The notes: generated from the letters alone by a model not told the origin. A stretch of 64,000 bases of DNA from Oligoflexales bacterium (GCA_044236265.1 JBIIGV010000233.1:15187-79186), one strand, 5' to 3'. Counted from the first letter of the stretch, positions 7,927 to 64,000 are shown. A program made the numbers and translations.

Positions 7927-7932
7927 TTAGCT

Positions 7933-9450: not shown

Positions 9451-9458
9451 GTGAGATC

Positions 9459-13139: not shown

Positions 13140-13166
13140 TTAAGCTGTGCGCGTAACCTCCGATAA
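13140..13166 (+). promoter_or_regulatory. Putative sigma28 (FliA) promoter for the lipoprotein/FadL-like operon
   Basis: TTAAG-N14-TCCGATAA compared with the consensus T(A/C)AAG-N14-GCCGATAA. Confidence 0.55.
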
Positions 13167-13222
13167 CTACTAGGTTAAATTAAAACTGACTAGATGGTCA
13201 CCTAGGGGCGGAGGATCAGCTT

Positions 13223-16414: not shown

Positions 16415-16683
16415 ATTTGGAACGATTTCCACTAACCGAAAATTCTTATTTTCTTCCGCATGGTTTGCACCGCTTTTTATTAAAATTCAGATGGGTAGAT
16501 CTGGAATATTTGCAGAGCCATTATGCGCTCTAAAGTCCTATTTTGACTTTTAAAATCAGGTACTTTTGCGCTAGTGGGAAAGGCCTGCGATTCTTGATGG
16601 GCCCATATTTCCTTGTTAAAATTAAGATATCGAAATCTCTAAGAATTGCGAATTTGGTTTTGTATCTCAAACTCGAGAGTTGA

Positions 16684-18393: not shown

Positions 18394-18465
18394 TTTGGGC
18401 TGGGGGCGGACCAACTGTGATTAAGGGCGCAAGTTGGTGAAATTCATAACTATAATAGGAAATGC

Positions 18466-18492
18466 TTAAGCATTCCTGTAGTTTGCCGAATC
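18466..18492 (+). promoter_or_regulatory. Putative sigma28 promoter of the giant gene, with the -35 element inside a palindrome
   Basis: TTAAG-N14-GCCGAATC; perfect palindrome AATGCTTAAGCATT at 18461-18474. Confidence 0.5.
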
Positions 18493-18532
18493 CCTCCTAG
18501 TACGGGCGTGAGAACTAATTCGGGTAGTGCTA

Positions 18533-21500
18533 ATGTTTCTCAAACGACTGAAATTTATGGCGCAGTTCAAAGCTGGTCAAGCTTTGCTATCTATTGTCAT
18601 ATTCAGTTTCCTACTCTCCTGTGAATCCAACTTTTCGGGTAAAGTCCTTAACTCCAATAGAAAAAATAATCCATTTGCTACGGCAAATCTGTTGGAGGGT
18701 CAGGTTGCGTTTAAAACAACAAAGTTGTCGACAAAAGCACGCGGAACTCGCCTTTCTGGAGAAGCCTGTACCGATCAAGCAACGGTCTACTTGACACACT
18801 TTGCCACATATCAAGACAGCTTAGTTATTGAGGTTCGCAAACGCATTCTATCGGTTAAGGCCGATAGCGATGGGCGCTTTAAATTTACGAACTTGAAAGA
18901 ACAGGGCGTAAATCTTCAGTCAAAAAATGATATTTATAAGGTGGAAGCAGAGCGTTGCAGCGACTACTACTCAAGGGTCGTGACAGGAGCGCAGGAGCAA
19001 AACCTAAGTGCAGCTGGTACCGCATTTGACTTCACACTCGACAAAACTGTTATCAAAGCAAGTCTTGGATCAGACGACTTTTACGCCAAACTGGAGGATT
19101 TGGATAAACTGTACAGTCTTGCTGACACTCGCAACTCGGTCGAAGGTGTATTGGAAACACTTCGCACGAGTCGTGAAACACAAAAATCATATAGCAATAT
19201 TTTTGGTGCTGAAGATGTCACTCTTCAGAATATCGAACCCCGAATTGTAATTGAGTCCGTACCCCTTAAAATTCCCGCAACTATTCTGACCCGTTTTGAA
19301 GTTTTAGCTGTTTACTATTCCGCCGAATTCAATGTCGATTATCGGTGGAAGTTAGACGGCGAAGTTGTCAGCACTGACCCTGGGTTTAGTTGGCGCCCGA
19401 CGTCGACCCAGCTCGGTCTGCACACTATCGAGTTGAGTGTTGGGGTGCGAAGCCAGTTTAACCTGGACGCATACCTTAACTCTAAGATCATGAATTACTC
19501 GATCAATGTTGTTGAAGCAACCTCCGATCCACGAACGCCCGTCGTGTCGAGTTTTGCTTTGGCTAACGCCGCGGCTGGTGGATTTATCAATAATGCTCAT
19601 GCTTCGGACGCAGAAGCTGTCGCAAGTTTGGTTGCCACCAATTATGATCAAGCCTCATATGCAATTGTCGCCCCGAACGTCACTTGCAATGAGTCTACGT
19701 CATTCCCGCTTGCTTCGATCCCGACTTTTGGAAGCTTTACAGTAGATGGAAGTTACAAAGTCTGTGCAAAGGTTTCGCGAAGTGATGGGGGCACTGTTTA
19801 CGTAGCAACTCAAACGTTGCAACGGGATGTTGTGATACCATCCGTGAGCTTTGTCGATGTGTTGCCCAAGGCTGGATCGACGAACCCGAAGCCGACAATC
19901 AAAGGAACGGCATCCGAGGCATCTTTAGTCTCTCTGTACTACGATGCAAGTTGTTCTTCTGCGAAGTCTTCAGCAACGGCAAACACAGTTTTTGCGTCAC
20001 CAGGAATGACCGTTGCATCTGATGTTAATTTAAACAATACGACGACAATCTATGCGCAGGCGGTTGATCCGGCTGGAAACCCATCGCCGTGCTCTTTGAT
20101 GTTGACGTACACCCACGACGACGTAACGCCCATTGTTAAAAATATCAAAGCTAATGTGGCCGATAATGGCTACAAGGCTGGCGATGTTATCCCGATTGAA
20201 GTGGAATTCTCTGAGCCAGTAAAAGTAACTGGCGTGCCGACTTTGACTCTTGAAACAGGATCGTCTGATGTTGTGGTTAATTACACATCTGGATCTGACA
20301 CCAAGTTTCTGATTTTCAACTTTACGGTCGGATCAAACCAGACAGCTGCGGACCTCGACTACATTTCAGCGACGGCTCTGTCTGCTTCCGGTGGTAGTAT
20401 TCAGGATCAAGTTCAAACTGATGCAGTCCTAACATTGCCAGCCCCTGGGGCAGCTGGCAGTTTGTCGGCAAATAGTAACATTCTGATTGATACGACCATA
20501 CCAGTAGTCACATATGCGTCGATCTCTCCTTCGTCCCCAGGTACAAGTCTGACACCAGCCGTATCGATGTCTCTAAGTGAAAACGCGACCGTGACCTTAT
20601 ACGGTAACAGTAGCTGTTCGGATGCAATTTCATCGGCTACGGCCCTGTCGGGAACCGGTTTACAAGTTATTACGACGAATACGCTCGCAGCTAACGCTGC
20701 GACAACGATCTTTGCCCGCGCCGTTGATGGTGTGACAAATCAGTCTGTTTGTCACAGTATGATTGTCTATACGCATGACAATATTGCGCCAACCGTCGCG
20801 TCTTTTGCGAGATCATCTGGCCAAAATTCATTCACTAATTCCGTACCAATAAATTTTGGCGTTCAATTTTCTGAAGTGATCGACCCATCAACATTCACGG
20901 CAAGTGATATTTCTAACACGGGTACTGCGACCGATATCGTTTGGACTGTTACGGACTCTGGTGATCACCGCAACTTTGTTGTAGCTGCGACGCAATCTGG
21001 AAACGGTACATTAAAGCCATCTTTTGCAGCGACTGCGGTGAGTGATCCGGCAGGGAATGCAATTCAGTCCATTTCGACGTCATCTAATGACGTGGCATAT
21101 TCTATCGCCCTATTCACTGTAACGTTGAATCAAACAGCTGGGCAGGTTGATCCTGCAAACTCGTTGCCGATATCGTTCACAGCCGTGTTCTCTGATGAGG
21201 TGGGTACAGGTCAGTTTGTCGCTCAAGATATTGTTCAGCAGGGCACTGCTTCAGGAATCACCTGGAATTTGGCAACTACGGATAATATCACATGGACGAT
21301 CACAGCGACTGCGATAACGGGTCAGGGAACCGTCGTTCCTCATATTCCTCAAGATGCAGTTTTAGACCGCTACGGAAACAAAAATGGTGCGTCAACTCAC
21401 ACAGATAACTCCGTGGTTTATGACATTACGGCTCCGACGATCACATTTACAAATCTTACTCCAGCAAACCCTTCTTCGGAGCTGCGTCCAACGCTCAAAG

Positions 21501-24500
21501 GTACGGTGTCTGAAGCGTCGATTGTAACCTTGTACTTTGATAGTAGCTGTTCGGCAGCCAAATCCGATGCTGTTGCGAACACAGTGCTGCCTATGCCTGG
21601 TCTTGCACCAAATATTGATGTAGCTGCCGATACAATGACGCCGATTTATGCGCGCGCCATCGATCCCGCAGGCAATATTTCGGTTTGTACGTTAATGGTC
21701 AATTACAACCACGACGGCACGCCTCCGTTCGTGGTGTCAGTTGGCTCGACTAAAGCTGATGGCTTCTATAAAGCTGGCACGGTCATCCCGATCGCCGTCA
21801 ATTTCTCTGAAAATGTATTTGTGGTTGGTACTCCGCAAATAACGCTCGAAACTGGCTCTACAGATCGAGTTGTAAATTATTCAAGTGGATCAGGCACTCC
21901 GACATTAGTCTTCAACTACACGGTTCAGGCTGGTGATACGGCAGCCGACCTTGATTATCTGGATACCTCAGCCTTCGCACTAAATGGCAGCACCATTAAA
22001 GACTGGGTTGATAACGATGCTGTCATGACTCTTCCATCCACCGGCAGCGCGACCAGTATCGCTGGCCAAAAATCAATCGTCATCGATACAGCCGTACCCG
22101 CTGTCTCGTTCGTGTCAATCTCACCTGTATCTCCAGGAATGAGTCGAACTCCCTCGGTGACCGTCAATGTGTCAGAAAATGCGAGTGGGATCGCCTTATT
22201 CAGTAACCCAACGTGTGGATCTGCAATCTCGGCGAGCATAGCGGGATCATCCGGCAACAATACTGTGGTGACGAATACGCTGACCGCTGATGCTCTGACT
22301 CCAATTTACGCTCAAGTGACAGACCTCGCCGGTAACGTTTCCTCCTGTGCGAATATGACCGGCTACCAGCATGACGGTACGCCTGCCGTTGTCACGTCCG
22401 TGTCTTCATCTTTGGCGAACGGAACATATGGTGTCGGCCAAGTGATTCCAATCGAAGTCAGCTTCTCGGAAGTCGTTTATGTCAACGGGACACCGTTTTT
22501 GACGCTCGAAACTGGCGCTACGGATGCCGTCGCCAACTACGCATCTGGTTCCGGTACCAACAAGCTGACTTTTAACTACACTGTCGTGGCCGGCGAAAAC
22601 ACTCTTGATTTGGAACTGACGTCACTGAGTGCGATAAATCTTAATTCCGGCACAATCAAGGATCTCGCTGGCAATGACTCAACCGTGACGGTAACGCCAC
22701 TGGCTGGCGGTAGTAGCTTATCTGGACAAAAGGCTATCGTCGTGGATACGACAGGGCCGACGCTAACATATGCCTCAGTCTCTCCGGTGCCTCCGGCTAC
22801 TTCAAGAACACCCGCGGTGACCATGAGTCTTTCTGAGCCTGCTGCCGTGACTCTGTACAGTGACAGCGATTGTTCTGCCGCGATATCGTCGTCAGTGAGT
22901 TTTGCTGCTGGCGTAGGTCGAACAATCACGACCAACACACTGACAGCTAATGCGACGACGCCGATTTTTGCAAAAGGTATAGATGCTGTAAACAACGCAT
23001 CAGCTTGTACAAGTATGATTGTGTACACGCACGATGATACGCCGCCAGTTGTGATGTCCTTTGCTCGTGCATCGAGTCAGATTGCCCAGACGAACTCTGT
23101 TCCAATTAATTTCACGCTGACATTCTCTGAGCCTATTAATCCCTCGAGTTTGACGGCGGGAGATATCTCCAATATTGGAAACGCGACAGGAGTTACATGG
23201 TCGATCTCTAATTCAGGCGACAATGCAACTTTCACGGTATCTGCAATCGCAGCAAGTAACGGAACCCTCCAGCCAAGATTGGCTGCGGCGAGCATTGCTG
23301 ATCATGCCGGCAATACAAACGTAGCCGGTGCGGACTCGCCAAACAATGTCGGTTATTTTGTAGCGGTGTTGACGGTGACGATGAATCAGGCTGCTGGACA
23401 AGGGGATCCAGTCAACGGTTTACCAATTAGTTACAACGTTGTATTCTCTGGAGCAGTAGGTGCGAATAGTTTTACGACTGGTGATATCGTTCAGAACGGC
23501 ACAGCTGGGGGAATTACTTGGACACTGTCGACCACTGACAATATTAGTTGGCTCCTACGGGCTACTGCGATAGCGACTCCGGGTACAGTCATCCCGTCGA
23601 TTGCAGCAAGCTCTGTCATCGATGAATTCCAGAACCAGAATGCGGCTTCAACATCGACCGACAATACAGTCGTCTACGATATTACGCCGCCGACGTTAAG
23701 CTTTTCATCTTTGACGCCATCCAATCCTTCGCAGTCAATGACGCCGACGATTATCGGTACAGCGTCTGAGCCGTCGACGGTGACGCTATACTACGACTCC
23801 GGATGTTCTGTCGCTAAGTCAGCCACGGTTCCGAACACCTCGTTTGCAAGTCCTGGTATCACGCCGACAGGTAATGTGGCTGCTGATACTGCCACCGTGA
23901 TTTACGGTATGGCTACCGATACGGCAGGGAACATTTCTGCTTGTACGAGTCTTGTCTCTTATGTTCACGATGGTACCGGGCCAAGCGTGACGAGTGTCAC
24001 GTCTACATTAGCTGACGGTCCTTATAAGGCAGGTCAAGTTGTCCCTGTCTTCGTGAACTTCAATGAAAATGTAAACCTCGCTGGTACTCTGCAATTGGCA
24101 CTAGAGACTGGTGCGATTGATGCAGTTCTAAACTATGTGTCTGGAAGTGGTACGAGCTCCCTAAGATTTAACTACACAGTGGTTGCTGGAGATACCTCGC
24201 TAGATCTTGACTATGTCAGTTCAGCTTCTCTGGCTCTTTTAACAGGTACCCTTCGCGACGCTGTCGGAAACGATGCAGTCCTCACGTTACCTGCTCCTGG
24301 AGCGTCTGGAAGTATGGGTGCAAATAAAGCGCTCATCATCGACACGACGGCGCCAACGATGACTTTCTCAAATACGTTGCCGGTTTCGCCTGGTAACACT
24401 CAAACCCCACAGGTGACGTTCACTATTTCAGAGAACGTACCTACCGTAAGGCTGTTTACAGATAATGCTTGTTCGGTGGGTGCCGCTCCTGCAAGTACTG

Positions 24501-60500: not shown

Positions 60501-63500
60501 CGACAAGCACGACGCCAAGCGTCTCGATGACTCTCTCTGAGGCTGCGCCATCGAACGGTCTAAGACTATATTCAAATGCAACCTGTACTGTGGCGATCTC
60601 GTCGGCGATTTCTGGCACAGTCGGTGGAAATACTTTAGCCACCACGACCGTAGGGACTAACGCGACAACGGCTATTTACGCGAGGGCTACAGATAGTGCC
60701 GGAAACGACTCGATCTGTACGCTTATGACTAACTACACCAATGACTCGGTTGCGCCTAGTGTTACCAATGTCACATCAACGGCTACAAACGGCACCTACC
60801 GCGTTGCACAGACCATCCCGGTCACTGTGACGTTCAATGAGTCGGTGACTGTCACTGGAACGCCGACGATCACTCTTGCGAACGGCGGGGCAGGGGCGAC
60901 AGCATCTTACGCCTCAGGCTCTGGAACGACCACATTGACATTCAATTATGTTGTGGCTTTAGCTGATGTATCTGCTGACCTTGACTATGCATCGACCTCA
61001 GCCCTCACGCTGGCGGGTGGTTCAATTAATGATGCCGCTGGAAACGGCGCTTCTCTGAGCTTGCCGGCAGTTGGTGGTGCGAACAGTATTGGTGGCCAGA
61101 AGGCTATTGTCATTCAGACGGCAGCCCCAACCATCACGTTTGCATCCATCTCGCCTACATCGCCTGGTACGAGCTTCACACCAACCGTGACCATGACTTT
61201 ATCCGAGGCAGCAACGGTCACACTATATAGTGACAGTGGTTGTTCGACTGCGATTTCGTCTCCAACCGAGTTGTCTGCTGGTTCCGGCCAGGCTGTGACG
61301 ACGTCGACACTCGCGGCGAATAGCTCAAGAACAATCCATGCCAAAGCAGTTGCGGCGAACAATAACCAGTCAAGCTGTACAAGTTTGGTAGCTTATACCC
61401 ATGACAATGTTGCTCCGACTGTCTCATCTTTTGTTAAGAAGGTTGGCCAGGCTTCGTCGACAAACTCTGTGCCGATTAACTTCACGTTAACGTTCTCGGA
61501 AGCTATCAATCCAGCTAGCTTCACTGCTGCTGATATTACAAATATCGGAACAGCAACCGGCGTTACCTGGTCCATCACCAACAGCGGCAATAACCAGACA
61601 TTCAATGTTGCGGCCGCTTCATCAGGCAATGGAACGCTGCAGCCACGTTTGGCAGCTGGTGCGGTGACAGATCCTGCTGGTAACACCTTTGGAACGCAGG
61701 TGGATTCTGCCGACACCATCAGTTATTCTGCAGCAGTATACAGCGTCACGTTGAATCAGGCATCGGGTCAGTCTGATCCTGCGAATACACTTCCGATTAC
61801 GTATACGATCGTCTTCTCAAGTGCGGTTGGCTCAAGTAGCTTTACGACCGCAGATCTTTCAAACGCCGGCACGGCGACGGGCATTTCTTGGGCGCTATCC
61901 ACCAGCGATAACACGACTTGGACGTTGACGGTATCTGCATCCGGTCAAGGAACAATCGCTCCAGTGGTAGCAGCGAACGGAGTCACCGACGCGTTCGGTA
62001 ACCAAAACAGTGCCTCGACGGCGACAGATGGCTCTGTCACGTACGATAACGTGGTGCCAACCGTAAGCTTCTCTTCGGCTAGCCCAGGTACAACATCATC
62101 ATCTCTAACCCCGACCATCCTCGGAACAGCGTCCGAGACGTCGACAGTCACCCTGTACTACGATAGCGGTTGCGTCACGCCAAAATCGGCGGCTACGGCA
62201 AATACTGCATTTGCGAGTCCTGGTATTACAGTAACTGGCAACGTAGGTAGCAACACAGCGACCACGATTTACGGTAAGGCCGTCGATGCTGCAGGTAATG
62301 CCTCCACATGTGCGACATTAACCACCTACAATCATGACAGTAGCGGCCCAACCGTTTCCAGCGTGACATCAAGCGCTGCAAATGGATCCTATAAGGTCAA
62401 TGCAGCACAGTTGATTCCTGTCACAGTGACATTTAATGAAGCGGTTGTTGTGACTGGCACTCCGACATTGACTCTCGAAACTGGCACAAATGACGCAGTT
62501 CTGAGCTACAGCTCGGGATCGGGAACGGCAACGCTCACATTCAATTACACAGTCTTCGCAGGGGACACATCGAGTGATCTTGATTATGTCAGCACATCGT
62601 CTCTATCGCTGGCCAGTGGCACGATCAAAGACCAATATGGCAATGATGCAACCTTGACACTACCTGCACCAGGCGCGGCTGGAAGTCTGGGAGCAAACCG
62701 CAGTATCGTTGTTGATACAACAGCTCCGACATTCACTTATACGTCTGTTACGCCAGCGTCACCAGGCACGAGTGCGACACCTCAGGTGGCGTTCGAAATT
62801 TCTGAAGCCTATAGCTCGGCAGGCCTATACTCCGATGCTTCCTGTAACACAGGTATCTCAGCAACTTCCAGTGGCAGTGCGGGTGGTAAGACCATCACCA
62901 CAAGCTCGCTAACGGCTAATGTCACGACATCGATTTATGCAAAGGTTACTGACTCTGTCGGTAACATTTCGAGCTGCTCGCTATTGACGACCTACGTTTA
63001 CGACGCCGCCTCACCAACCGTTACCAGCGTCTCGTCGACCACTGCAAATGGAACCTACGGAGCTGGTAGCACAATCGCTATCAACGTTGTCTTCTCTGAA
63101 GCAGTGACGATTACCGGCACGCCACAGTTGACCCTTGAGACTGGAACAACTGATGCTGTGGTCGACTACGTTTCCGGAAGCGGCACAAATACACTTCTAT
63201 TCAACTATAGTGTCCTTGCAGCGCACTCCAGTGCTGATCTTGATTATCAGTCGACAGCTGCTCTTTCGGCAAATGGCGGAACGATCAGAGACGCGGCTGG
63301 AAATACGGCGACGCTGACATTGCCGGCTCTTGCGGGTGTTAACAGTATCGCTGGTCAGAAGGCCCTTGTGATTCAAACCGTTGCACCAACTGTCACTTAC
63401 GCATCCATTGCACCGACATCGCCAGGCAGCAGCCGTACGCCGACTGTGACCATGACACTATCAACCGCTGCAACTGTGACCCTTTACAGCGAAAATACCT

Positions 63501-64000
63501 GTAATACGGCTATCTCCGGTGCGACCGCGCTGTTGGCTGGGGCGGGTCAGACGATAACGACGGCCTCATTGACCGCAAATGGTTCAACGACCATCCATGC
63601 CAAAGCTGTAGCCGCAAATAATAATCCATCGGCGTGTACGTCTCTGGTTACTTACACCCATGATAACGTCGCTCCTACGATTGTGTCCTTTGACAAGGCG
63701 TCAGGTCAGGGATCCTCAACGAATTCGACTCCGATTAACTTCACGCTGACGTTCTCTGAAGCAATTTCTGCTGCGTCGCTTACAGCTGCTGATTTCACAA
63801 ACCTTGGAACGTCGACGGGCATCACTTGGACCATTACGGATTCTGGTAACCAAACGACGTTCAATGTGGCCGCAGCTGGTCTCACTAACGGTACGGTTCG
63901 TCCACGTCTTGCAGCTTCCGGTATTACCGATGGTGCAGGCAATGCGAACGTGGCAGCTAGTGACTCTGTTAGTACGATCACCTACAATGCTTCTCCGCTC
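18533..64000 (+). CDS. Giant Ig-like-repeat surface lipoprotein/adhesin, >15,156 aa, 3'-truncated by the window end
   Basis: ATG 18533 follows an in-frame TGA at 18509; MFLKRLKF...IVIFSFLLS-C (Cys30). All repeat markers checked from 21128 to 63371 and the last codons (DSVSTITYNASPL) are in frame +2. The ORF track lists no stop-terminated frame +2 ORF here, consistent with no internal stop. Bacterial Ig-like signatures DTTAP, VTFSExVxVTGTPxLTLETG, SGSGTNTLTFNYTV and DxAGN recur throughout. Confidence 0.95.
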   Translation, partial: MFLKRLKFMAQFKAGQALLSIVIFSFLLSCESNFSGKVLNSNRKNNPFATANLLEGQVAFKTTKLSTKARGTRLSGEACTDQATVYLTHFATYQDSLVIEVRKRILSVKADSDGRFKFTNLKEQGVNLQSKNDIYKVEAERCSDYYSRVVTGAQEQNLSAAGTAFDFTLDKTVIKASLGSDDFYAKLEDLDKLYSLADTRNSVEGVLETLRTSRETQKSYSNIFGAEDVTLQNIEPRIVIESVPLKIPATILTRFEVLAVYYSAEFNVDYRWKLDGEVVSTDPGFSWRPTSTQLGLHTIELSVGVRSQFNLDAYLNSKIMNYSINVVEATSDPRTPVVSSFALANAAAGGFINNAHASDAEAVASLVATNYDQASYAIVAPNVTCNESTSFPLASIPTFGSFTVDGSYKVCAKVSRSDGGTVYVATQTLQRDVVIPSVSFVDVLPKAGSTNPKPTIKGTASEASLVSLYYDASCSSAKSSATANTVFASPGMTVASDVNLNNTTTIYAQAVDPAGNPSPCSLMLTYTHDDVTPIVKNIKANVADNGYKAGDVIPIEVEFSEPVKVTGVPTLTLETGSSDVVVNYTSGSDTKFLIFNFTVGSNQTAADLDYISATALSASGGSIQDQVQTDAVLTLPAPGAAGSLSANSNILIDTTIPVVTYASISPSSPGTSLTPAVSMSLSENATVTLYGNSSCSDAISSATALSGTGLQVITTNTLAANAATTIFARAVDGVTNQSVCHSMIVYTHDNIAPTVASFARSSGQNSFTNSVPINFGVQFSEVIDPSTFTASDISNTGTATDIVWTVTDSGDHRNFVVAATQSGNGTLKPSFAATAVSDPAGNAIQSISTSSNDVAYSIALFTVTLNQTAGQVDPANSLPISFTAVFSDEVGTGQFVAQDIVQQGTASGITWNLATTDNITWTITATAITGQGTVVPHIPQDAVLDRYGNKNGASTHTDNSVVYDITAPTITFTNLTPANPSSELRPTLKGTVSEASIVTLYFDSSCSAAKSDAVANTVLPMPGLAPNIDVAADTMTPIYARAIDPAGNISVCTLMVNYNHDGTPPFVVSVGSTKADGFYKAGTVIPIAVNFSENVFVVGTPQITLETGSTDRVVNYSSGSGTPTLVFNYTVQAGDTAADLDYLDTSAFALNGSTIKDWVDNDAVMTLPSTGSATSIAGQKSIVIDTAVPAVSFVSISPVSPGMSRTPSVTVNVSENASGIALFSNPTCGSAISASIAGSSGNNTVVTNTLTADALTPIYAQVTDLAGNVSSCANMTGYQHDGTPAVVTSVSSSLANGTYGVGQVIPIEVSFSEVVYVNGTPFLTLETGATDAVANYASGSGTNKLTFNYTVVAGENTLDLELTSLSAINLNSGTIKDLAGNDSTVTVTPLAGGSSLSGQKAIVVDTTGPTLTYASVSPVPPATSRTPAVTMSLSEPAAVTLYSDSDCSAAISSSVSFAAGVGRTITTNTLTANATTPIFAKGIDAVNNASACTSMIVYTHDDTPPVVMSFARASSQIAQTNSVPINFTLTFSEPINPSSLTAGDISNIGNATGVTWSISNSGDNATFTVSAIAASNGTLQPRLAAASIADHAGNTNVAGADSPNNVGYFVAVLTVTMNQAAGQGDPVNGLPISYNVVFSGAVGANSFTTGDIVQNGTAGGITWTLSTTDNISWLLRATAIATPGTVIPSIAASSVIDEFQNQNAASTSTDNTVVYDITPPTLSFSSLTPSNPSQSMTPTIIGTASEPSTVTLYYDSGCSVAKSATVPNTSFASPGITPTGNVAADTATVIYGMATDTAGNISACTSLVSYVHDGTGPSVTSVTSTLADGPYKAGQVVPVFVNFNENVNLAGTLQLALETGAIDAVLNYVSGSGTSSLRFNYTVVAGDTSLDLDYVSSASLALLTGTLRDAVGNDAVLTLPAPGASGSMGANKALIIDTTAPTMTFSNTLPVSPGNTQTPQVTFTISENVPTVRLFTDNACSVGAAPASTGLMGSNTVTTSALPANTGTSLYVRSTDAAGNVSSCTLLTTYTHDGIPATVTNVSSSSTNGTYGVGNTVAIVVTFSEIVNVTGAPQLTLETGAIDGVANYVSGSGTTALTFNYVVSAGESSLDLDYGSTTALGLNGGTIRDRAVNNADLTLPAVGGASAIAAQKGIIIDTTAPTITYSSISPVPPSASMSAFVTLQVSEASTVTLYSNPGCSAAISSAKAMISGGDQMISTVNLPTNTSTTIYARAVDPVNNVSECTNMVVYTHDNIAPQVDSFTRAATQASYTNSLPMNFTLTFSEPIIPETLTGSDFVNMGTATAVTWGVADSGDHRTFTVSATASGNGTLRPRLASGAITDLAGIGNPLNATSDNSVNYSIAAFTVTVNQAPGQGDPVNSLPINFRVVFSGAVGSNSFTASDVVQNGSAEGVTWNLSTTDNITWTVSATAVNIQGTVIPFISPNTVLDEFGNNNAASTSTDSSVVYDIAAPVLTFASVTPSNPAATRTPTVLGTSSEPSTVTLYYDSDCSTAKSSAASNTVFASPGIALTSNVDADVTTTIYGRAVDVAGNVSICTSLVGYQHDGTSPTVTNVTSTLANGPYKAGQLIPIQVTFSEPVFVTGAMQLTLETGLSDAVVAYTVGSGTSTLTFNYTVAAGNTAADLDYVGTSALALISGTIKDSVGNDANLALPSPGSSGSLGANKSLWIDTTAPVLAFTSINPVSPGISQNPQVTFTVSELVPTLRLYTDAICSAAISGWNTGSAGANTIATSTLAGNVATSIFAQGTDPAGNTSNCTSLTTYLNDGLAPTVTGVTSTAADGTYGGGQVVPIKVDLSEVVFVTGTPQLTLETGASDAVVNYSSGSGTTSLIFNYTIVPGHDSVDLNYASMSALVANGGSIKDLAGNDANLALAALDAASSLASQKAIVIDTTVPVMSYVSISPVPPAQSQTPTVTFSLSEPSTVTLYRESGCSTAISSAIPLAAGPAQSITTNTLTSNAATTIFAKAIDTVTNPSECTQLVVYSHDNTSPAVSSFARNATQPAMTNSLPINFTITFSEPINPSSFVSTDLSNGGTATGVTWFINNTGDNQSFTVSVTNSGNGTIIPRLASGSIADIAGNTNSGITSASNSVNYSVAPYTVSVNQAPTQIDPVNTLPVNFRVVFSSAVGNNTFTPADIVQNGTATGITWSLSTTDNITWTVAATAISGGSGTVIPSIAENTVTDEFGNINGASTSTDNTVIYDVTPPVVTYSSLAPANPSSELRPSFLGSVSEISTVTLYYDGSCANARSATVPNTQFASPGITVNSNVTANNSTIIYAKAVDTANNESACTSLVSYLHDSIGPSVVSVSANIADGSYKAGMVLPITVTFTENVYVNGTLQITLETGTFDAVVNNSSGSGTDTLVFNYVVAPGEVTPDLEYSGSAALALISGTIKDAVGNNAVLTLPATGASGSLGLNKSIIIDTTAPTLTYTNIFPASPGNTQTPQVSLDLTEPVTVLRLYSDASCTAAISPASTGTIGPNTVTTNTLTANASTTIYGQGTDAAGNVSLCTLLTSYQHDGISPTVTSVSSSSANGSYGVGQTVAVTVVFSEPVLVSGTPQITLETGSSDAVVNMTTGTGTNTLTFNYTVRAGDTTGDLDYLSNAALALNGGIIKDPAENLAVLALPNTGGATSIAGQKNIVIDTTAPVITYQSVSPSSPAMSQTPTLTVTMSETATVTLYSNGSCSSAVSTPTVLNGGVGRTISTNALPANTTTTLYAKAVDPVNNVSSCSVMVVYTHDITSPTVSSFTRSAGQLASTNSVPVNFTLTFSEPINPNSFTAADISNFGTSTGVLWTVTNTGDNTSFIVAATVASNGTLQPRLASGGVTDVAGNSNFGNVNSSNTVNYFVAAYTVMVNQNDGQAESTNALPINFTVVFSGAVGNNTFDTSDIVQNGTASGITWSLSSSDGITWNLSATSILGDGTVIPSVAANTVVDEFGNNNGASTSSDNSVNYDVTLPIVAFSSVSPSNPAATLKPTIRGTVTESSTVALYYDSGCSTAKSSAMSNTVFASPGITVTGNVNANTTTAIYAKAVDAVGNVSSCTYLTTYNHDGIGPVVTGVNATMSDANYKAGQTIPITVTFNELVFVTGTPQITLETGSADAIVNYTSGSGTNTLTFNYIVFAGDTSADLDYISTTALTFNAGTIKDGVGNSATLTLAAPGSSGSLGANRAIIIDTTAPVITYNSIAPTSPGISLAPQLTLTLSEAVTAFRFYSDPVCSSPISSSASMGSGSNTRATDTLAANVVTTIYGQSVDQAGNTSLCTMLTSYRHDDVGPTVSSVTSTANNATYGVGAVIPVTVTFTEPVFVTGTPQITLETGVTDAVVNYSSGSGTSTLRFNYTVALGQNTGDLEYVGTSSLSLNSGSILDTAGNAVDLALPALGSAGSIAGQKNIVVDTTAPTLTYESIAPVSPGMSQMPIVTVALSEPANVTLYSDHTCSAAISGSTSLSSGSGQAITTFTLTSNTTTDIYGKAVDPVSNASSCLNLVVYTHDNVAPSVASFVRAAGQPSFTNSIPINFTMTLNEPVDVSTITASDISNTGTATGITWSVTSVSNTVFTVSATSSGTGTLIPRLANGSFQDVAGNVSISQFTASESVNYTASPFTVTINQASSQGDPSATDPVNFTVVFSRAVGSGSFTAADIVQNGSLGSITWTLTTSDDITWNLAASGMAATGTLIPSIASGTVVDLYGNSNAASTSTDNTVNFDITPPTLAFASLSPSNPAATLRPTIRGTASKASTVTLYYDVSCSTAKSAGASNTSFATPGITPTANVNSNTTTIIYAKAVDSLGNASSCTSLVTYSHDGVSPTVTGVSSTLANGPYKAGQLIPITISFTEVVTVTGTPSLTLETGAADSVVNYSSGSGTNTLTFNYTVFNGDTAADLDYVSSAALALNNGSIKDPVGNDATLTLPAPGALNSLGSNKNLVIDTTAPALTYTSILPVPPSSSSTPQVSLSSNEAATNLQLYSNSSCSTAISSPASGTVGGNVISSTGVNLNAPTTVYAQATDSAGNISTCTLMTTYVHDDVPPTITSVSSSSGNGTYRVGQSLAITATFSDPVTVSGVPQLAMETGAVDTVANYSSGSGSSTLTFTYTIALNDTSSDLDYAGTSALALNGGSIIDAAGNNAALTLPAPAGTGSLGAQKALVIQTAPPVLSYTSIAPTSPGTSRQPVVTLSVNEAATVTLYSDSGCGTAISTGTAISTGAGQTITAYTLPSNTGTSIYGKAVAAYGNTSACTNLVVYTHDNIAPTVTSFVKAAGQNSFTNSIPLNFTLTFSEPINASSFTVNDLMNIGTATGVSWEIVPVSSTVYTVSVTSAGNGSVTPQLVSGTVTDPAGNATANNYDSADTVNYTAAAFTVSVNQASGQADPVNVLPVSYTVVFSGAVGSSSFDVSDVTQAGTASGVTWGLSTADNITWTLTATAASSSGTIIPSIAADRVVDAFGNNNSAATSTDKTVTYDITSPTVTFASLSPANPSSSLTPTIRGTVSEASTVTLYYDVNCSTGKSAATASTAFASPGIVVNANVNSNTSTAIYAKAVDNVGNESSCTSLVSYTHDGVSPTITNVTSGLADGTYKAGQVVPVSLTFSEAVTVTGTPKISLETGATDAVVAYSSGSGTNTLTFNYTVFSGDVSADLDYISTTALALDGGTIRDHVGNNAVVTLPAPGTSGSLAANKALVVDTAPPSVTFTSISPVSPGSSRTPQLVVNTSEAMSDIQIYTDASCTTSVSSSQSAGVGSKSITTSPLPANAQSSLYAYGLDIAGNPSACTLMTSYLHDDLGATIAFVTSTSSNGTYGVGNQIVITVRFSEAVYVTGVPQLTLETGASDAVVNYASGSGTNTLSFNYNVLSGQSSVDLDYQSTTSLSLNSGTIKDVSGNNATLTLPTPGDSNSLAGQKDIVIDNTAPTITYTSISPPSPGISQTPTVTMDLSESATVTLYSDNTCTAAISNATLLSGGAGQTVTTISLTPNATTTIYAKGLDAVSNASTCTNLVSYVHDNTPPLASTFARASGQPALTNSLPINFTVAFNEPIAASSFTSADISNGGTATGTTWTVTAVSSNTYTIAATTANNGTLIPRIALGGVTDIAGNATTSMNNSSETVNYSTAALSVVINQAAGQADPVASGPITFTVQFSNPVNPGTFTAADIVQNGTATGISWALTTTDDTTWNLTASGMAGSGTVIPSIADTTVVDVFGNNNAASTSTDNTVTYDITAPSLTFSSLSPSNPGSTLTPSVRGTASKASTVTLYFDSLCSTSKSAATASTAFSSPGITLTGLVNSNTTTTIYAMAVDALGNASGCTQMVVYTHDGAPPTVTSISSTLADGYYMAGQLIPITVTFSENVTVTGTPNLALETGSTDATINYTSGSGSNVLTFNYTVAAGDTSSDLDFVGSSSLVLNGGTIRDVIGNNAILTLPAPGTAGSLAANKALVVDTAAPSLTYTSINPVSPNSSQTPQVTLVLSEAAQNVQLYSNPVCNNAISSSSVGSVGTNVITTTTLLSNATTSIFAKMTDLAGNDSFCVSMTNYANDMTAPGVSSVTSTSTNGTYVVGQTIPVSITFSENVYVTGTPQLTMETGATDTVADYASGSGTNTLVFNYVIALNDASLDLDYHSAGALGANGGTIKDLAGNNAVLTLASPGAASSLGANKAIVIQTTLPTISSASISPASPGSTRTPTVSMTLSDASTVTLYSNSDCSTAISAAKSLVAGSGQTVTTYTLASNVATQIYGKAVAAFGNTSVCTSLISYTHDDVAPFVSSFVRASGQNAFTNSTPVNFTLTLSESINVSTLTAVDISNAGTATNVVWSVASVSSSVFTISANSSDNGTIIPRLAANAVADPAGNTNVAQASATDTVSYTAATYTVTLNQATGQSDPINALPVNFTVVFSSAVGSSSFDVSDITQTGTASGITWTLASADQITWTLSVTAVTTPGSIVPMIASNRVVDEFGNQNGQSASTDNSVVYDTAAPVVTFSSVTPANPSSSLNPRFFGSVSEASVVTLYYDVSCTTAKSSATANTVFASPGILVTGAVNANTTTTVFAKAVDTAGNASVCTNIVTYTHDGIGPTVTDVTTGLANGSYKAGQAVPISVTFSEVVTVTGTPNLTLETGATDAVLAYSSGSGSNTITFNYTVFAGDTSADLDYVATTSLVANGGTIKDAVGNDATLTLPAPGAAGSLGGNKGVIIDTTAPSVSYTSISPVSPGATRTPQVTISLSEAASSVELFSDAGCSASVSAAAAAAAGSNTITTTNLTANGSTSLFAKMTDIAGNASSCSLMTSYTHDGNDPTVTVVSSTKADGTYGTGTLIPITVTFSENVYVTGTPRITLETGATDALVDYTSGSGTTTLTFNYTVGAGEASADLDYESTGALVLNSGTIKDLSGNNANLALPALASASSLAGQKAIVLDQTAPTITFTSINPVSPGMSQTPTLTLSLSEAATVTLYTDSGCSAAVSSATSLASGAGQTIATNSLNANVSTSLWAKGVDLVGNVGSCSSMVTYIHDSAAPTVSTFARAGGSPTNSLPVNFTLTFNEPINPASLTSADFTNAGTATGVAWSVTNSGDSTTFTVAATVSGNGTLQPRLASGGMTDVAGNANASAVTASNSVSYSVAAFSVAINQAAGQSDPVRTLPITFTAVFSDAVNPTTFDASDIVQNGTAGGITWNLSSTDNITWTITASGLGASGSVIPSIASSTVKDTFGNDNAASASTDNTVSYDITVPTFSSITVSPANPAATLTPTVLGVVSKASTVTLYYDSSCTTAKATPAANTVFATPGITVTGNVNPNTTTVIYGQAVDALGNTSLCTNLVTYTHDGAAPTVSGVSANLANGPYKAGQVVPVEVTFSENVTVTGVPQITLETGATDAVVTYTSGSGTNKLTFNYTVFAGDTSADLDYVATTSLALNGGTIKDSVGNNATLTLPAPGASGSLGASKDLVIDTTSPTLAYTSITPVSPGTTRTPQVALTISEGVTNIQLYSNALCNAAVSSAAAGTSGANTITTNNLTADNSTLIFAQATDAAGNASACTSMTSYTHDGTAPTITGVSSTSANGTYRVGQTIPVTVTFAENVYVTGTPSLLMETGSTDTAASYVSGSGTSTLTFNYVVALTDQSSDLDYQSAAALTVAGATIQDLAGNNATLTLAAPGATNSLADQKAIVIQTTKPTIAYTSISPASPGTSRTPTVSMTLSEAATVTLYTDNTCNTAKSAATALSAGAGQTVTSYTLTANAATDLYAQAVGAFGNTSLCTMLVSYTHDSIAPTVTSFVRASGQAAFTNSVPVNFTMTFSEAIDPALFTANDISNSGTANGVTWTVTNSGNNTTFTIAATSSGNGTLIPRLGVTGIADPAGNTNGSPYDTTQNVSYTAATFTVTVNQASGQADPVKTLPAQYTVVFSSAVGNSSFDVIDVSNSGTATGVVWGLATSDNITWTLTATSASSDGTIIPVIAQNTVQDEFGNQNGAATATDRSITFDSAAPTFSGPYTVSPANPSSSLTPTIRGVTSEASTVTMYYDSGCITPKSAGTANTAFVTPGITVNSNVNANGTTTIYAKAQDTAGNESSCTTIVATYTHDSMGPSVTNVTSSQSNGSYKVTAAQIIPISLTFSEAVNVTGTPTLTLETGATDAIATYASGSGTSTLVFNYTVFAGDTSSDLDYAGTAALALSGGTMTDAVGNNATLTLPAPGAAGSLGANKALIIDTTLPTVAFTSISPVSPGASLSPQVTINSSEAGSMELFSTSNCNSSISTAITGSVGANTIATNSLAPNASTSIFAKVTDAAGNASSCTSMTTYLHDGVDPTVTSVSSTAANGSYGTGQTMAITVSFSEVVYVTGTPNLTLETGATDAVINYASGSGTNTLTFNYTVASTHNSLDLDYESTTALLLNGGTIKDVSLNNAVLTLPTVGGVNSIAGQKAIVIDNVVPTITYTSMTPASPAMGLTPTLTMSLSEAATVTLHSDHTCTAPISVDTALSSGAGQTITTQALTANATTSIYAKAIDVVNNPSVCTSLTTYTNDSLAPTVVSFARAAGQGSVTNSVPVNFTITFSEDMSAASFTGADISNTGTATGVTWAVTQVSSTVFTVAASSANNGTLIPRLANASVTDVVGNATTAQADATNSVNLVNGGLTVTVNQASGQADPTNGSTINYTVVFSRAIDPTTFASDDIFQNGTATGLTWTITTSDNITFNLAASGMSATSTVIPSISSTRVKDTFGNDNAASTSTDNTVNYDVTAPTLTFASISPSSPASTLMPMVSGTASKPSTVTLYYDSGCSTAKSSAESNTVFALPGIALTANVSSNTATSIYGKAVDALGNASSCSALTTYTHDGISPTVTNVTAVHADGTFKAGELIPIKVTFSEAVTVTGTPRLTLETGSVDAVVNYTSGSGTAELTFNYTVFAGDTTSDLDYISTSALALNGGTIVDHVGNAASVTLPAVGGVASIAGQKSLVIDTTAPTVAFTSITPVSPSNNLTPAVALTLSETASDVRLYSDSGCSSALSNAANAAAGPYTITTTTLTANQTNNIYARTTDVAGNQSACTLMTNYAHDGVAPTVTSVSASSANGTYHVGQTVAVTVAFSEVVTVSGTPQLTLETGASDAVIDYVSGSGSNTLTFNYTVALSHASPDLDYTSTASLAANGGSVQDGSGNNATLTLPGVGGPNSIAGQKAIVIQTSKPTIAFTSITPSSPGTSQTPTVTMSLSDASTVTLYSDGGCSTAISAPTALSAGAGQSVITQTLAANGQTQIHAQAVAAFSNTSLCTSLVSYTHDNVAPSVTSFARAGGQVEFTNSVPANFSITFSEAINPASLTAADITNAGTAAGVTWTVTNSGNNTTFTVAASTAGNGTIQPRLAIGAVTDPAGNASGSQVDASNSVSYTQATFTVTLNQASGQADPVKTLPVLYTVVFSSPVGASSFTDADIQNQGSGTTVTQWQLETADNVTWTLKAMAVTGNGTIMPVITANSVQDAFGNLNGASTSTDRTVTYDTTAPTLTYVALTPANPSTSLMPTILGTASETSTVTLYYDGGCSTPKSVATANTQFATPGIAVTGNVNSNASTVIYAQAVDTAGNLSSCTSLVTYNHDGVGPTVTNVTSTASDGNYKVTNAQTIPVTVTFSEVVTVTGTPTLTLETGATDAVVSYSTGSGTNTLTFTYTVFAGDTAADLDYVSASSLVFNGGTVKDGVGNNATLTLPSPGAAGSLGANKAIIIDTTAPTIGFAVISPTSPATSQTPTVTVTLSEGLSAVQLFSDSSCTASASVSSNGSAGNKNIVTTTLNANATTSLYAKGTDIAGNVSICASLTSYTHDNAGPTVVSVTSSLANGTYGLGQVVPVAITFSEVVSVTGTPTLTLETGAVDGVASYVSGSGTNTLNFSYTVGAVDGTADLNYASTTALALAGGSILDASTNPADLTLPALANASSLGGQKAIVLDLTAPTITYASIAPTSPGTTATPTITMTLSEAATVTLYSNSGCSASISDAKALVSGVGQTITTNALTANTEISIYAKGIDTVNNASGCASLTTYTYDSVAPAVSSFAVAGGQVAVTNSVPINFTLTFSEAINPSSFTAADISNAGTATGVDWSVTNSGDNTSFTVSATLAGNGTIQPRLATASVADPAGNLNAAVSTATGSVSYSQAAFTVAINQASGQSDPVRTGPITFTAVFSSAVGSSTFSAGDVAQSGTAANVTFAVTSLDDITWTITASGMSGSGTVVPTIASNRVKDLFGNDNAASTSTDNTVSYDVTTPTLTFASVGSGNPGSSLTPTILGTVSKASTVTLYFDSGCSTAKSAPTANTAFASPGITLTGNVNANTSTTIYGKAVDSLGNETCSLLTTYNHDGAGPSVVSVAVNKANGSYKTGEVIPVQITFSEAVTVTGAPQITLETGATDAVVDYTSAASSTVLNFNYTVSPGDTTADLDYASTTALALNSGTIRDAVGNNATLTLPAVGGAASIGGNYAIVIDTTAPSVTYNSITPASPASNLNPQVALTLSEAVANVQLYSNSGCSAAVSTATAGTAGANTITTSALSANTTTNLFAQASDAAGNQSACTSMTAYLHDGVAPTVQSVTATAANGTYRVGQTIPVTVTFSEAVTVSGTPQLTLETGATDAVVNYASGSGTATLTFNYVVGLNDSSADLDYTSTAALALNSGTIADAAANNATLTLPTVGGAGSLGANKALVIQTTPPTVTYNSISPSSPNSSQTPTVTMTLSDAATVTLYSNGGCSTAISAGAALSAGSGQTVTTYTLSPNVTTQIFAQAVAAFGNTSSCTSLVSYTHDNVAPTVSSFVRATSPVQAQFTNSVPVNFKITFSEAINSGSFTASDIINTGTASGVTWTVSNSGDNINFTVAASASGNGTLIPRLAANAVTDSAGNNNGSQYDATESVSYTAALYTVTVNQASGQADPVNSLPVNYTVVFSSAVGSSSFAVGDVTNIGSASGVTWTLTDSGDGITWNLSATATGAGTIIPSIAANTVKDAFGNDNAAATTTDRTVTYDNVVPTFSSISVSPAATSSSLTPTILGTVSESSTVTLYFDSGCTTPKSAAAANTVLASPGVQVTSNVNSNTTTTIYGKAIDAAGNASACATLATYTHDGVGPTVTNVSSTAADGTYKVTAAQTIPVTITFSENVVVTGTPTITLETGSTDAVVSFSSASGNTMTFTYTVFAGDTATDLDYVGTGSLVLAGGTIKDTYGNNATLTLPSPGAASSLAANKAIVIDTAAPMISYTSIAPVSPGSSLTPQISISLSEAVSSVQLFSDGSCSSSASSASTGSAGAKTITTSALTANATTALYAQATDIVGNISSCSLMTSYRHDGAAPTVLSVSSSLANGTYGLGQVIPVTVTFSEVVTVTGTPQLTLETGATDAVVNYVSGSGTAALTFNYTVAVGHGSSDLDYTTNTALAFNGSTIVDGSGNAAVLTLPAPGTGSSLAGQKAIVIDLVAPTIAYSSISPASPGMSQTPTLTITLSEAATVTLYSNNSCTASISAATSLASGSRTITTSNLTSDTAISIYAMAVDAVNNASGCEIMTSYTYDSIAPAISSFSVKVPQVAVTNSVPVNFTVTFSEAINPSSFTAADISNAGTATGVAWSVTNSGDNTTFTVAATLSGNGTIRPSLASASVNDVAGNANALSGQSSGSVDYSVAAFTVAVNQASGQADPVRSGTISYTAVFSSAVAGSSFTAGDVTNAGNAPGVSFAVSSIDNINWTITASGMSGSGTVIPTIASGAVTDAYGNTNAASTSTDNTVTWDVTVPTLTFSSVSGGNPGNSLTPTVLGTASKASTVTLYYDASCSTAKSTPVANTAFASPGITVSGNVNANTTTIIYAKAVDALGNESSCANLVTYQHDGVSPAVASVTANKGNGSYKAGEIIPIEVTFNDTVTVTGAPTLTLETGAVDTAVNYTSGSGSAVLTFNYTVAAGDTSADLDYATTTALSLASGTIKDSVGNNADLTLPAVGGASSIAGQKAVVIDTTMPSVTYTSMSPSSPGSSLTPQITLSLSEAAGTSLRLFSDSGCSLAISAVGTGTAGSNTVTVTSVNAEAATSIYAKAVDTAGNGSACTLMTSYTHDSVAPAVTSVSSTAANGTYAVGSLVPITVTFSEAVTVTGTPTLAINSTASAISYASGSGTNTLTFNYTVALADAAADLDYTSTSALSLAGGTIKDAALNSATLTLGAPTSGTSLGGQKNIVISTVAPSMAYTSIAPSSPNISQTPTITFSLTQDATVTLYNSGACSTAVSGPVALTAGSGKTIQTYSLPANSSTPIHAKAVAAYSNVSSCTSLVSYTTDTTAPTVSSFVRATSPVQSQFTNSIPVYFKVTFSEPISPASFTGADITNIGTATGVTWTVTDQGDATNFTVAAVTGNNGTIQPRLAVGAVTDPAGNISGNQADATETVTYTAALYTVTLNQSAAQGDPVKTLPINFTVVFSTAVGNNTFAVGDISNAGSATGITWSLSSADNITWTLSATAITGAGTVIPDLAANTVKDVYGNDNGAATFTDRSVTYDVTAPSFSSISVSPSATGATLTPTILGTASETSTVTLYYDSGCTTPKSAATANTAFATPGIAVTGNVNTNGATTIYAKAVDAAGNASSCENLVTYTHDGTGPTVTNVTSTAANMTYKVDAGQSIPITVTFSEAVTVTGNPTLTLETGSTDAVVTYSSGSGSTTLTFTYTVFAGDNSTDLDYVSTSALGLNGGTIKDAVGNNATLTLPVPSQAGSLGANRAIVIDTTAPALTYTSILPATPGNTPTPQVTLSLNEAAATLRLFTDAACSSTASAQVAGSIGSNTVTTTALTANQVISIYGKATDAIGNASNCTLLTSYTYDSVNPTVTGVTSSLANGTYGLGQLVPITVTFSESVTVTGTPQLVLETGATDAVVNYVSGSGTNSLLFNYTVGAGHQSADLDYASQSALSTNGGTIRDVAGNNATLTLAATGSGSSIAGQKAIVLDQTPASITFASITPTSPGTSATPTVAIDLDKASTVTLYSDSSCTAAISDATSLTAGSSRTITTNALTSDVAISIHAKAVDAVNNASACTSLVSYTYDSIAPTVSSFVVKAGQPLITNSLPVNFDITFSEAIDLSSFTAADISNAGTASGVAWTITDSGDHMTFTVAATVSGNGTIQPRLAASAVTDVAGNVSGSIVPASASVSYSVAAFTVAINQASGQADPVRTGPITFTAVFSSAVGSSSFTNGDVIQSGSAANVTFTVSSIDNINWTISASGMSGTGSVIPTISSGVATDTFGNTNAASTSTDNTVAYNVTPPSISFVSVSGGNPGSGLTPTILGSAGAGSTVTLYFDSGCTTSKSAAAANTVFASPGIALTGSVSSDTATTIYGRAVDTLGNESSCTLLTTYNNDTTSPTVTSVTANKTDGTYKSGVSIPIEVTFSESVTVTGTPQITLATGGANTAVNYVSGSGTTTLSFTYIVAAGETSIDLDYASTSALGLNLGTIKDAVGNDANLTLPTVGSGNSIAGQKAIVIDTTAPTITYSSVSPASPATSTTPSVSMTLSEAAPSNGLRLYSNATCTVAISSAISGTVGGNTLATTTVGTNATTAIYARATDSAGNDSICTLMTNYTNDSVAPSVTNVTSTATNGTYRVAQTIPVTVTFNESVTVTGTPTITLANGGAGATASYASGSGTTTLTFNYVVALADVSADLDYASTSALTLAGGSINDAAGNGASLSLPAVGGANSIGGQKAIVIQTAAPTITFASISPTSPGTSFTPTVTMTLSEAATVTLYSDSGCSTAISSPTELSAGSGQAVTTSTLAANSSRTIHAKAVAANNNQSSCTSLVAYTHDNVAPTVSSFVKKVGQASSTNSVPINFTLTFSEAINPASFTAADITNIGTATGVTWSITNSGNNQTFNVAAASSGNGTLQPRLAAGAVTDPAGNTFGTQVDSADTISYSAAVYSVTLNQASGQSDPANTLPITYTIVFSSAVGSSSFTTADLSNAGTATGISWALSTSDNTTWTLTVSASGQGTIAPVVAANGVTDAFGNQNSASTATDGSVTYDNVVPTVSFSSASPGTTSSSLTPTILGTASETSTVTLYYDSGCVTPKSAATANTAFASPGITVTGNVGSNTATTIYGKAVDAAGNASTCATLTTYNHDSSGPTVSSVTSSAANGSYKVNAAQLIPVTVTFNEAVVVTGTPTLTLETGTNDAVLSYSSGSGTATLTFNYTVFAGDTSSDLDYVSTSSLSLASGTIKDQYGNDATLTLPAPGAAGSLGANRSIVVDTTAPTFTYTSVTPASPGTSATPQVAFEISEAYSSAGLYSDASCNTGISATSSGSAGGKTITTSSLTANVTTSIYAKVTDSVGNISSCSLLTTYVYDAASPTVTSVSSTTANGTYGAGSTIAINVVFSEAVTITGTPQLTLETGTTDAVVDYVSGSGTNTLLFNYSVLAAHSSADLDYQSTAALSANGGTIRDAAGNTATLTLPALAGVNSIAGQKALVIQTVAPTVTYASIAPTSPGSSRTPTVTMTLSTAATVTLYSENTCNTAISGATALLAGAGQTITTASLTANGSTTIHAKAVAANNNPSACTSLVTYTHDNVAPTIVSFDKASGQGSSTNSTPINFTLTFSEAISAASLTAADFTNLGTSTGITWTITDSGNQTTFNVAAAGLTNGTVRPRLAASGITDGAGNANVAASDSVSTITYNASPL
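19826..64000 (+). repeat. Degenerate tandem super-repeat of ~2256 nt (7 Ig-like domains): 1 short unit, 18 full units, 1 partial unit
   Basis: NQxxxQx(D/E) marker at 21128, 23384, 25640, 27896, 30155, 32408, 34661, 36914, 39167, 41417, 43673, 45935, 48191, 50456, 52715, 54971, 57230, 59492, 61754 (spacing 2250-2265 nt, all multiples of 3). Confidence 0.95.

Follow-up and report, generated by a model that had tools for sequence, protein, structure and literature searches.

A giant Oligoflexales gene with a seven-domain super-repeat of Ig-like modules and a nested 14-domain period

The giant open frame and its surroundings

The window analyzed here is a stretch of 64,000 nucleotides from an Oligoflexales bacterium (GCA_044236265.1, JBIIGV010000233.1:15187-79186). 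It contains an open frame (18527..64000) on the plus strand, as are all features below unless otherwise stated, that spans at least 15,158 codons and is still open where its contig (C202) ends. The visible part of the encoded protein, at least 15,158 aa long, has a computed mass of 1.52 MDa and a pI of 4.1, and the gene accounts for 1.4% of the assembly. The protein is rich in Thr, Ser, Ala and Gly (16, 13, 13 and 8%, respectively). Along the gene, the GC content climbs from about 0.48-0.51 to 0.52 (positions 41000-64000), mainly at second codon positions (0.544 to 0.586), which amounts to more Thr, Ala and Ser at the far end.

An assembly artefact can be ruled out as the source of the array, because the giant gene has no exact 30-base repeat and because a 41-kb contig from another run spans positions 16001-36000 of the window unbroken, with 630 differences and no gaps. 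Among the 40 strain differences listed, 33 are synonymous, and 161 further differences lie outside those listed. The runs that contain DNA of the giant gene are mostly labelled as lake or freshwater metagenomes, and no RNA run is among those listed.

The frame starts with a predicted lipoprotein signal peptide (18527..18622), in which the putative lipidated Cys32 is encoded at position 18620; a later ATG may be the true start. The Ser-Cys motif of this lipobox-like N-terminus is conserved in one related genome (G001) and in two metagenome loci (L091 and L092). In total, 433 residues of non-repeat sequence precede the array. Their part after the signal peptide (18623..19825) includes a weak PKD-like stretch and one Ig-like module with a Cys pair, and is 43-45% identical to that of orthologues. 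The Ig-like module (19538-19825), located just before the first array domain, forms tandem arrays of its own in many genomes of the genus, with matches in 12 of 13 genomes (e.g., G001, G005, G007, G010 and G012). The genome at hand (G000) also encodes LolA and two secretins. A promoter scan gave counts at chance level.

Immediately upstream of the giant gene lies a gene for a 569-aa protein (16684..18393) that consists of an N-terminal domain, a Pro-rich linker and a predicted outer-membrane beta-barrel (aa 335-569; Atlas features 0.93-0.95, TM 0.60-0.74 to barrel clusters). We found this barrel gene in 5 of 40 genomes. It is located immediately 5′ of the giant gene wherever the start of the latter is assembled (G000, G001, G004, G006, L091 and L092), and was not found in G012, which is 94% complete. 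Its N-terminal domain (about 200 aa), which also occurs in locus L014, has no Pfam or NCBIfam name and is doubled in G001, G004 and G006, and the linker in G001 is rich in Ala, Glu and Lys in place of Pro.

No type I secretion system (T1SS) genes are present in positions 1-18500 of the window. In G001, genes that appear TolC/AcrB-like from their sequence occur a few kilobases downstream of the giant gene. We found no repeated partner protein encoded near the giant gene. Elsewhere in the window are three overlapping genes without family matches (13223-16414), with two lipoprotein-like starts and one end resembling an outer-membrane barrel; an overlapping exonuclease plus GIY-YIG protein and DinG-like helicase, the latter with an N-terminal PD-(D/E)XK stretch (7933-11807); and a Ceramidase-family membrane protein on the minus strand (2084-2860, E-value 2.6e-09).

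A seven-domain unit with position-specific domains

The visible array consists of a five-domain starter, 18 complete units and a cut-off last unit, for a total of 137 domains. A preliminary description of this DNA had proposed a seven-domain unit of fixed order, A1-B1-A2-B2-A3-C-D, along positions 19826..64000. This order is present in all 18 of the units U02-U19, each of which is 750-754 aa long. The two ends depart from it: the starter U01 (19826..21421) has only the domains A1-B1-A3-C-D, as it does in G001, G004, L091 and L092, and U20 (62045..64000) is cut after its C domain by the end of the contig. The coordinates and lengths given earlier for the second unit (U02, 21422..23677) are exact, with domains starting at 21422 (A1), 21713 (B1), 22085 (A2), 22373 (B2), 22745 (A3), 23033 (C) and 23363 (D). 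Units U03-U06 (23678..32701) start at 23678, 25934, 28193 and 30449. Units U07-U19 (32702..62044) start at 32702, 34955, 37208, 39461, 41711, 43967, 46229, 48488, 50750, 53009, 55265, 57524 and 59786. Past position 64000, contigs of two runs continue into A1-like sequence, and the array is therefore longer than the window shows.

Domains were also said to resemble their positional equivalents in other units most closely, and this holds: the closest match by identity is to the domain's own position for 135 of the 137 domains, and both misses are B2 domains that are closest to a B1. Phylogenetic trees, which the preliminary description had suggested as a check, agree. In an IQ-TREE analysis of 59 A domains, A1, A2 and A3 each occupy one side of a branch, with supports of 100/100, 98/94 and 99/74. 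In FastTree analyses of 39 domains each, B1 and B2 as well as C and D separate without a misfit (0.945 and 1.0). Along the chain (132 domains), mean identity rises from 0.287 between adjacent domains (lag 1) to 0.575 at a lag of seven and to 0.621 at a lag of 14, compared with 0.234 for shuffled sequence, and whole units are 0.50-0.69 identical to one another. The proposal of four distinct domain classes needs adjustment. B1 and B2 are 0.56 identical, and C and D are related (0.36), so the seven position types are made of three domain families and not of four.

A nested period of 14 domains

The array also has a 14-domain period, nested above the seven-domain one, that the preliminary description had missed. 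Within U06-U19, two units resemble each other more if both are odd or both are even than if their parity differs (difference 0.045, p=0.0002 with 5,000 shuffles), and this odd/even signal is significant at all seven positions (p<=0.011). There is no such signal in U02-U06 (p=0.24). The last unit, U20, is mixed in that A1-B1 are of the even type and A3 is of the odd type.

The array of G001 has its own copies of two units and of four units (82% and 71% identical), as well as one recent, exact copy of 219 aa (100%). Given these copies and the odd/even signal, the later growth unit was 14 domains or multiples thereof. Units of G000 and G001 can be paired only weakly, and only for the first few units, which indicates that the two arrays grew separately; by contrast, units of G001 and G004 pair one to one at about 70-89%. 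Assignment of units to odd and even types across species is weak when whole-unit identity is used (differences mostly below 0.04), and is clear only in the predicted metal-binding residues of A3 that are discussed below. It is likely that the array was lengthened by copying blocks of seven and then of 14 domains. Such block duplication accounts for the pattern without a ruler.

Relatives of the array

Part of the unit is matched in 27 of 40 related genomes. Whole units, however, occur only in G000, G001, G004 and G012, which belong to one genus. The same four are the only ones among 130 genomes of the phylum to have full-length A3-C-D-A1 matches above 45%, while G014 has a match at 34%. A starter is present at a contig end in G006 and a C-D piece in G005. 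The seven-domain order was also found in 4 of 65 metagenome loci (L091-L094), and an A-C-D core is present in 5 of 120 proteins among the matches listed. Among 63 genome loci, those with the order repeat the arrays already counted. A search for the order in other genomes, which the preliminary description had suggested as a further check, thus finds both the order and the length of the unit outside G000: of 44 spacings between units in relatives, many of them from close orthologues of each other, 43 measure 750-758 aa and the remaining one 769 aa. Neither in U02-U19 nor in G001, G004, G012 or L091-L094 is there a complete unit with a domain too few or too many.

The G001 gene is distributed over two contigs, with an N-terminal part of 6,449 aa and a C-terminal part of 7,342 aa. 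Genes flanking the two parts are neighbours on contig C130 of G000, which shows that the parts belong to a single gene that encodes at least about 13,800 aa. The flanks of this cassette of barrel and giant genes (on contigs C1 and C6 of G001) are about 550 bases apart in G000 (C130:38597-41080), and the cassette is therefore at different sites in the two species.

In G001, the array ends with A1-B-A2-B-B, followed by a Big_12 domain, 13 RCC1 stretches and a short Ig-like tail. L093 and L094, which are 78-82% identical overall, end in the same order plus a tail of about 890 aa. We did not find a full-length orthologue, as every array breaks at a contig or locus end. A tblastn search of G000 with the G001 tip did not find an orthologous tip; the best match (26%) was to a separate 546-aa RCC1 protein, in addition to isolated Big_12-like modules.

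Two other G000 contigs were rejected as continuations of the giant gene. The A-B repeats of C30 match those of C28 nearly letter for letter. These near-identical repeats (C28:2-1888, minus strand, and C30:1-3378, plus strand) are likely one shorter paralogue with a Gly-rich end that was split by the assembly. A frame on C64 is built from a different type of repeat, and we see no link between it and the giant gene. It is a second giant frame (C64:29942-53407, minus strand) of 7,822 aa with an open 5′ end and repeats of about 1,100 residues, and it has no match to the A-D profiles.

Other shorter paralogues have A-B or A-only stalks ahead of propeller-type or Gly-rich tips. One short paralogue in G001 (L015, contig C1) has the order A1-B-A3-C-D-A1-B1-A2, stops after A2 without a tip and is possibly a truncated copy. 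Surface proteins of Chloroflexota, spirochaetes, cyanobacteria and Bacteroidota also contain domains B, C and D, frequently as runs of B alone or of D alone, and A-only and A-B runs likewise occur in other proteins. Two metagenome proteins (L126 and L127) have an alternating B-C two-domain repeat. The modules are thus common, but the seven-domain order is not. Judging by these arrangements, the unit reads as (A-B)2-A plus C-D, i.e., as a mosaic of working stalk modules.

Structure prediction and domain families

A structural model of one unit plus the next A1, calculated from 41 aligned units, is all-beta, with a pLDDT of 91.4 and a pTM of 0.45. The individual domains are thus modelled confidently, while the overall shape is unsettled in the model. 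A single-sequence fold of one unit (pLDDT 38) was discarded. Prediction of a complex of three A3-C-D copies scored 0.00, which counts neither for nor against association.

Structure searches with single domains gave matches to FnIII, PKD-like and bacterial Ig domains at Z 8-9.6, including FdeC and SiiE (2yn3, Z 8.3), though B1, C and D were hardly sampled. These Z values are middling, and whole-unit matches reach a TM of at most 0.32. The best Foldseek hit is GhpA (TM 0.26, 14% identity). By sequence, no solved structure matches the 41-unit profile at E<=1.

Among the 41 units, Pfam finds Big_5 in 28 and Big_12 in 6, and finds no I-set or fn3 domain in any. NCBIfam gave no name above its cut-offs for any of the seven proteins searched. 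Atlas clusters close to A1 (0.88-0.90) are unnamed or of Big_13 type, and serve as a lead only.

Predicted calcium joints

In the giant adhesin SiiE, the joints between domains are stiffened by type I calcium sites, each of which combines an Asp at the junction with one in mid-domain and one from a DxAGN motif; loss of these sites raises tilting (PMC5466336, PMC6272769). We assigned a corresponding triad by sequence pattern, consisting of a junction Asp, a mid-domain Glu and the Asp of a DxxGN motif. By this pattern, SiiE-type triads appear at five to six of the seven joints per unit, and most joints are predicted to be SiiE-like and to bind calcium. In U02-U20, the triad is complete in all 19 domains at each of the positions A2, B1, B2 and C, and in none of the 18 D domains.

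Over six arrays, none of the 47 C-D joints has the junction motif, 13 of 48 B-A3 joints lack it as well, and nearly all other joints have it. In other proteins, the junction Asp motif was found at 378 of 517 D-D joints and 9 of 13 C-D joints, and three of the four C-D exceptions are kin. All 47 C-D joints descend from one joint.

The losses in A3 are periodic. The A3 triad is intact in U03-U06, and there is no alternation within U01-U06. From U07 to U19, A3 of the odd units lacks both Asp residues, until the alternation breaks at U20 (the affected units are U07, 09, 11, 13, 15, 17, 19 and 20). Alternate units of G001, G004 and G012 also have an A3 domain without one or both Asp residues. In a tree of 43 A3 domains from which the triad columns had been removed, all 16 broken domains fall on one side, together with two intact ones and with low support. 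Given that the broken domains fall together, one old loss that was copied with the 14-domain block would suffice, and the A3 alternation may be a single inherited loss without function.

In odd A1 domains, Lys is found in place of the middle Glu. The same residue occurs in 77 of 512 outside D domains, and Lys in the odd A1 domains therefore need not mean a lost lock.

Proposed function and alternative explanations

We think that the gene probably encodes a giant surface adhesin with a lipid anchor, whose stalk is assembled from common modules, grew by duplication of 7- and 14-domain blocks and is predicted to be stiffened by calcium, with unlocked joints at periodic positions. This reading builds on features that are directly observed, namely the frame, the block order, the 14-domain period, the conservation across the genus, the RCC1 end of the orthologues and the positions of the triad residues. 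The giant protein would be exported by Sec and anchored to lipid through Cys32, perhaps with help in export or anchoring from the adjacent beta-barrel. Each A domain would form one disulfide. Outside the cell, the junction Asp, mid-domain Glu and DxxGN Asp would bind Ca2+ as in SiiE type I sites and stiffen the chain.

If we scale from SiiE (175 nm for 53 domains; PMC5466336, PMC6272769) and GhpA (240 nm for 52 stem repeats plus a hook; 10.1101/2024.01.29.577165), the 137 domains seen would form a rod of about 0.45-0.6 micrometres, with about 23-32 nm per unit. The C-D joints (every seven domains) and every second B2-A3 joint (every 14 domains), which lack the triad, would flex more readily or be held by some other means, resulting in a segmented rod. 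A propeller tip at its end might bind a surface, prey or particle. Mixing classes also keeps neighbouring domains only about 29% identical, which would reduce misfolding between them (PMC4647330, PMC9704523).

The most serious alternative is that the pattern is a neutral footprint of duplication, in which A-B, A and C-D modules came together by chance and were then copied as a block, and in which order and joints are unselected beyond the need for a long stalk. This explanation overlaps with the adhesin stalk and differs from it only in denying the joints any role. We consider it quite possible, if not favored: the same modules occur in many other orders among relatives, the triad-broken A3 domains resemble one lineage, and the arrays expanded separately. 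However, no domain has been lost or gained in any complete unit even though units are only 50-65% alike, and the C-D joint never regains a triad while the other joints keep theirs almost perfectly.

Another possibility is that the unit is a true structural module, as the preliminary description had inferred. The unlocked joints would then be fixed bends, and 7 or 14 domains would make one turn of a coil or set the register of a bundle, as in a spring or a GhpA-like cable. The near-constant unit spacing in relatives is consistent with this idea, as are the strict on/off alternation at B2-A3 in G000, G001, G004 and G012 and a borderline length compensation among domains (p=0.049). Nevertheless, we regard it as unlikely. 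The alternation is missing from the first six units and breaks at U20, and indels are rare in every domain of the unit regardless. That the top Foldseek hit is GhpA, whose Ig-repeat hook is heptameric (10.1101/2024.01.29.577165), would fit a bundle, but similarity at this level reflects a generic likeness of Ig chains, and the low pTM does not define a global shape. The joints with and without a predicted calcium site do follow a fixed pattern, which gives the unit some structural identity. A helical turn, a ruler or a periodic binding site is unsupported in view of the model, the separately grown arrays and the plain one-type arrays elsewhere. A specific form of the module idea is a programmed segmented fibre, in which five or six of every seven joints are locked by calcium and the fixed unlocked joints set the bends, so that a half-micrometre single chain would have a defined coil or spring and would be kept for its mechanics; this, too, seems doubtful to us.

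Alternatively, the fibre could be no adhesin but could shield the cell from grazers or phages, or act as a drag element that slows sinking, with the tip being secondary. The share of the assembly devoted to the gene and its presence in lake plankton samples would suit such a role, and the many Thr and Ser sites could carry glycans. However, the varied propeller and Gly-rich tips on stalks of varied length follow the grammar of fibrillar adhesins (PMC8286594), and we find the shield improbable. Least plausible is a titin-like ruler or periodic scaffold that binds one partner copy per unit and so sets spacing or length. The array does share position-specific conservation with titin (PMC11040099), but the neighbouring genes do not encode a repeated partner, and neither the number nor the identity of units is conserved between species. 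In addition, the surface is rich in Thr, Ser, Ala and Gly, and the invariant columns of the unit consist of core residues and of Pro, Gly, Cys, Asp and Asn.

Whichever reading is right, species only about 55% alike have kept the seven types of domain position, the nested period of 14 domains and the predicted pattern of calcium joints. The stalks of bacterial Ig proteins are generally regarded as monotonous spacers. The array raises the question of whether super-repeats specify the form and rigidity of a protein or are no more than a trace of duplication. Joints that act as programmed hinges would provide a design rule for segmented protein rods. Otherwise, the array is a clean case of giant-gene growth and a new family of giant surface proteins in a poorly known freshwater group.

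Comparison with known systems

We found no published description of the seven-domain architecture in the main texts of mostly open-access papers, and the available part of a preprint on giant genes (10.1101/2023.11.21.568195) makes no mention of Oligoflexia. This family of giant Ig-stalk surface proteins apparently has not been described so far. Repeat subtypes that are arranged in larger blocks occur in Synechococcus SwmB.

SiiE of Salmonella enterica, with 53 BIg domains, is likewise a long chain of bacterial Ig domains; its distal binding part has a putative counterpart in the RCC1 end of the G001 orthologue. The Asp at its junctions, its mid-domain acidic residue and the Asp of its DxAGN motif are in corresponding positions, and it is among the structural matches (2yn3, above). 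However, the domains of SiiE are near-uniform, and its export as a T1SS substrate relies on a C-terminal signal (PMC5466336, PMC6272769). The giant protein has no sequence match to solved SiiE, and differs from it in its Cys pairs, its at least 137 domains in a seven-type order and its periodic loss of the triad. Export in the manner of SiiE, by a T1SS and with no N-terminal signal peptide, is contradicted by an N-terminal hydrophobic stretch with a lipobox-like Cys.

Fibrillar adhesins and Bap-type proteins combine an anchor, which is predicted here, with a repeated Ig-like stalk and a distal adhesive domain, which here would be the RCC1 part seen in orthologues only (PMC8286594, PMC4647330). 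The stalk of the giant protein fits this group, with 137 Ig-like domains, Big_5 and Big_12 matches and a pLDDT of 91. In Acinetobacter baumannii, BAP is likewise composed of more than one type of module and has TDnAGN motifs (PMC4647330). Unlike the varied module arrangements described for these proteins, a fixed multi-class block is present here in 18 or more copies.

GhpA of Aureispira is a giant Ig-repeat surface fibre with disulfides (predicted in our case), many Ser and Thr residues and an adjacent gene for an outer-membrane barrel (10.1101/2024.01.29.577165). By contrast with the giant protein, the available description of GhpA is of a T9SS substrate with a C-terminal anchor that is heptameric and has an N-terminal hook. 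Pfam and NCBIfam searches found no T9SS match at the end of the G001 orthologue, which consists of RCC1 and a short Ig-like stretch. Periscope proteins are similar in that a repeat stalk presents a distal domain and varies in length through recombination (PMC9704523), but their tandem repeats are near-identical, whereas the units here are 50-69% alike.

Finally, the array had been called titin-like. Like titin, it has a fixed multi-domain order with a period of seven, in which domains are nearest to their own position, and in this respect the comparison is apt. The titin A-band has super-repeats of seven domains in the D zone and of 11 domains in the C zone; the titin repeat corresponds to the 43-nm spacing of myosin and determines how long the filament is (PMC11040099). 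We see no partner and no fixed unit number for the giant protein. Moreover, the domain families and their order differ: titin has Ig-Fn3-Fn3-Ig-Fn3-Fn3-Fn3, while the giant protein has A-B-A-B-A-C-D and no I-set or fn3 domains. The likeness to titin is one of analogy, not homology. New in the present analysis are the 14-domain period, the order shared across a genus together with an RCC1 end and a barrel gene, and the periodic loss of the triad.
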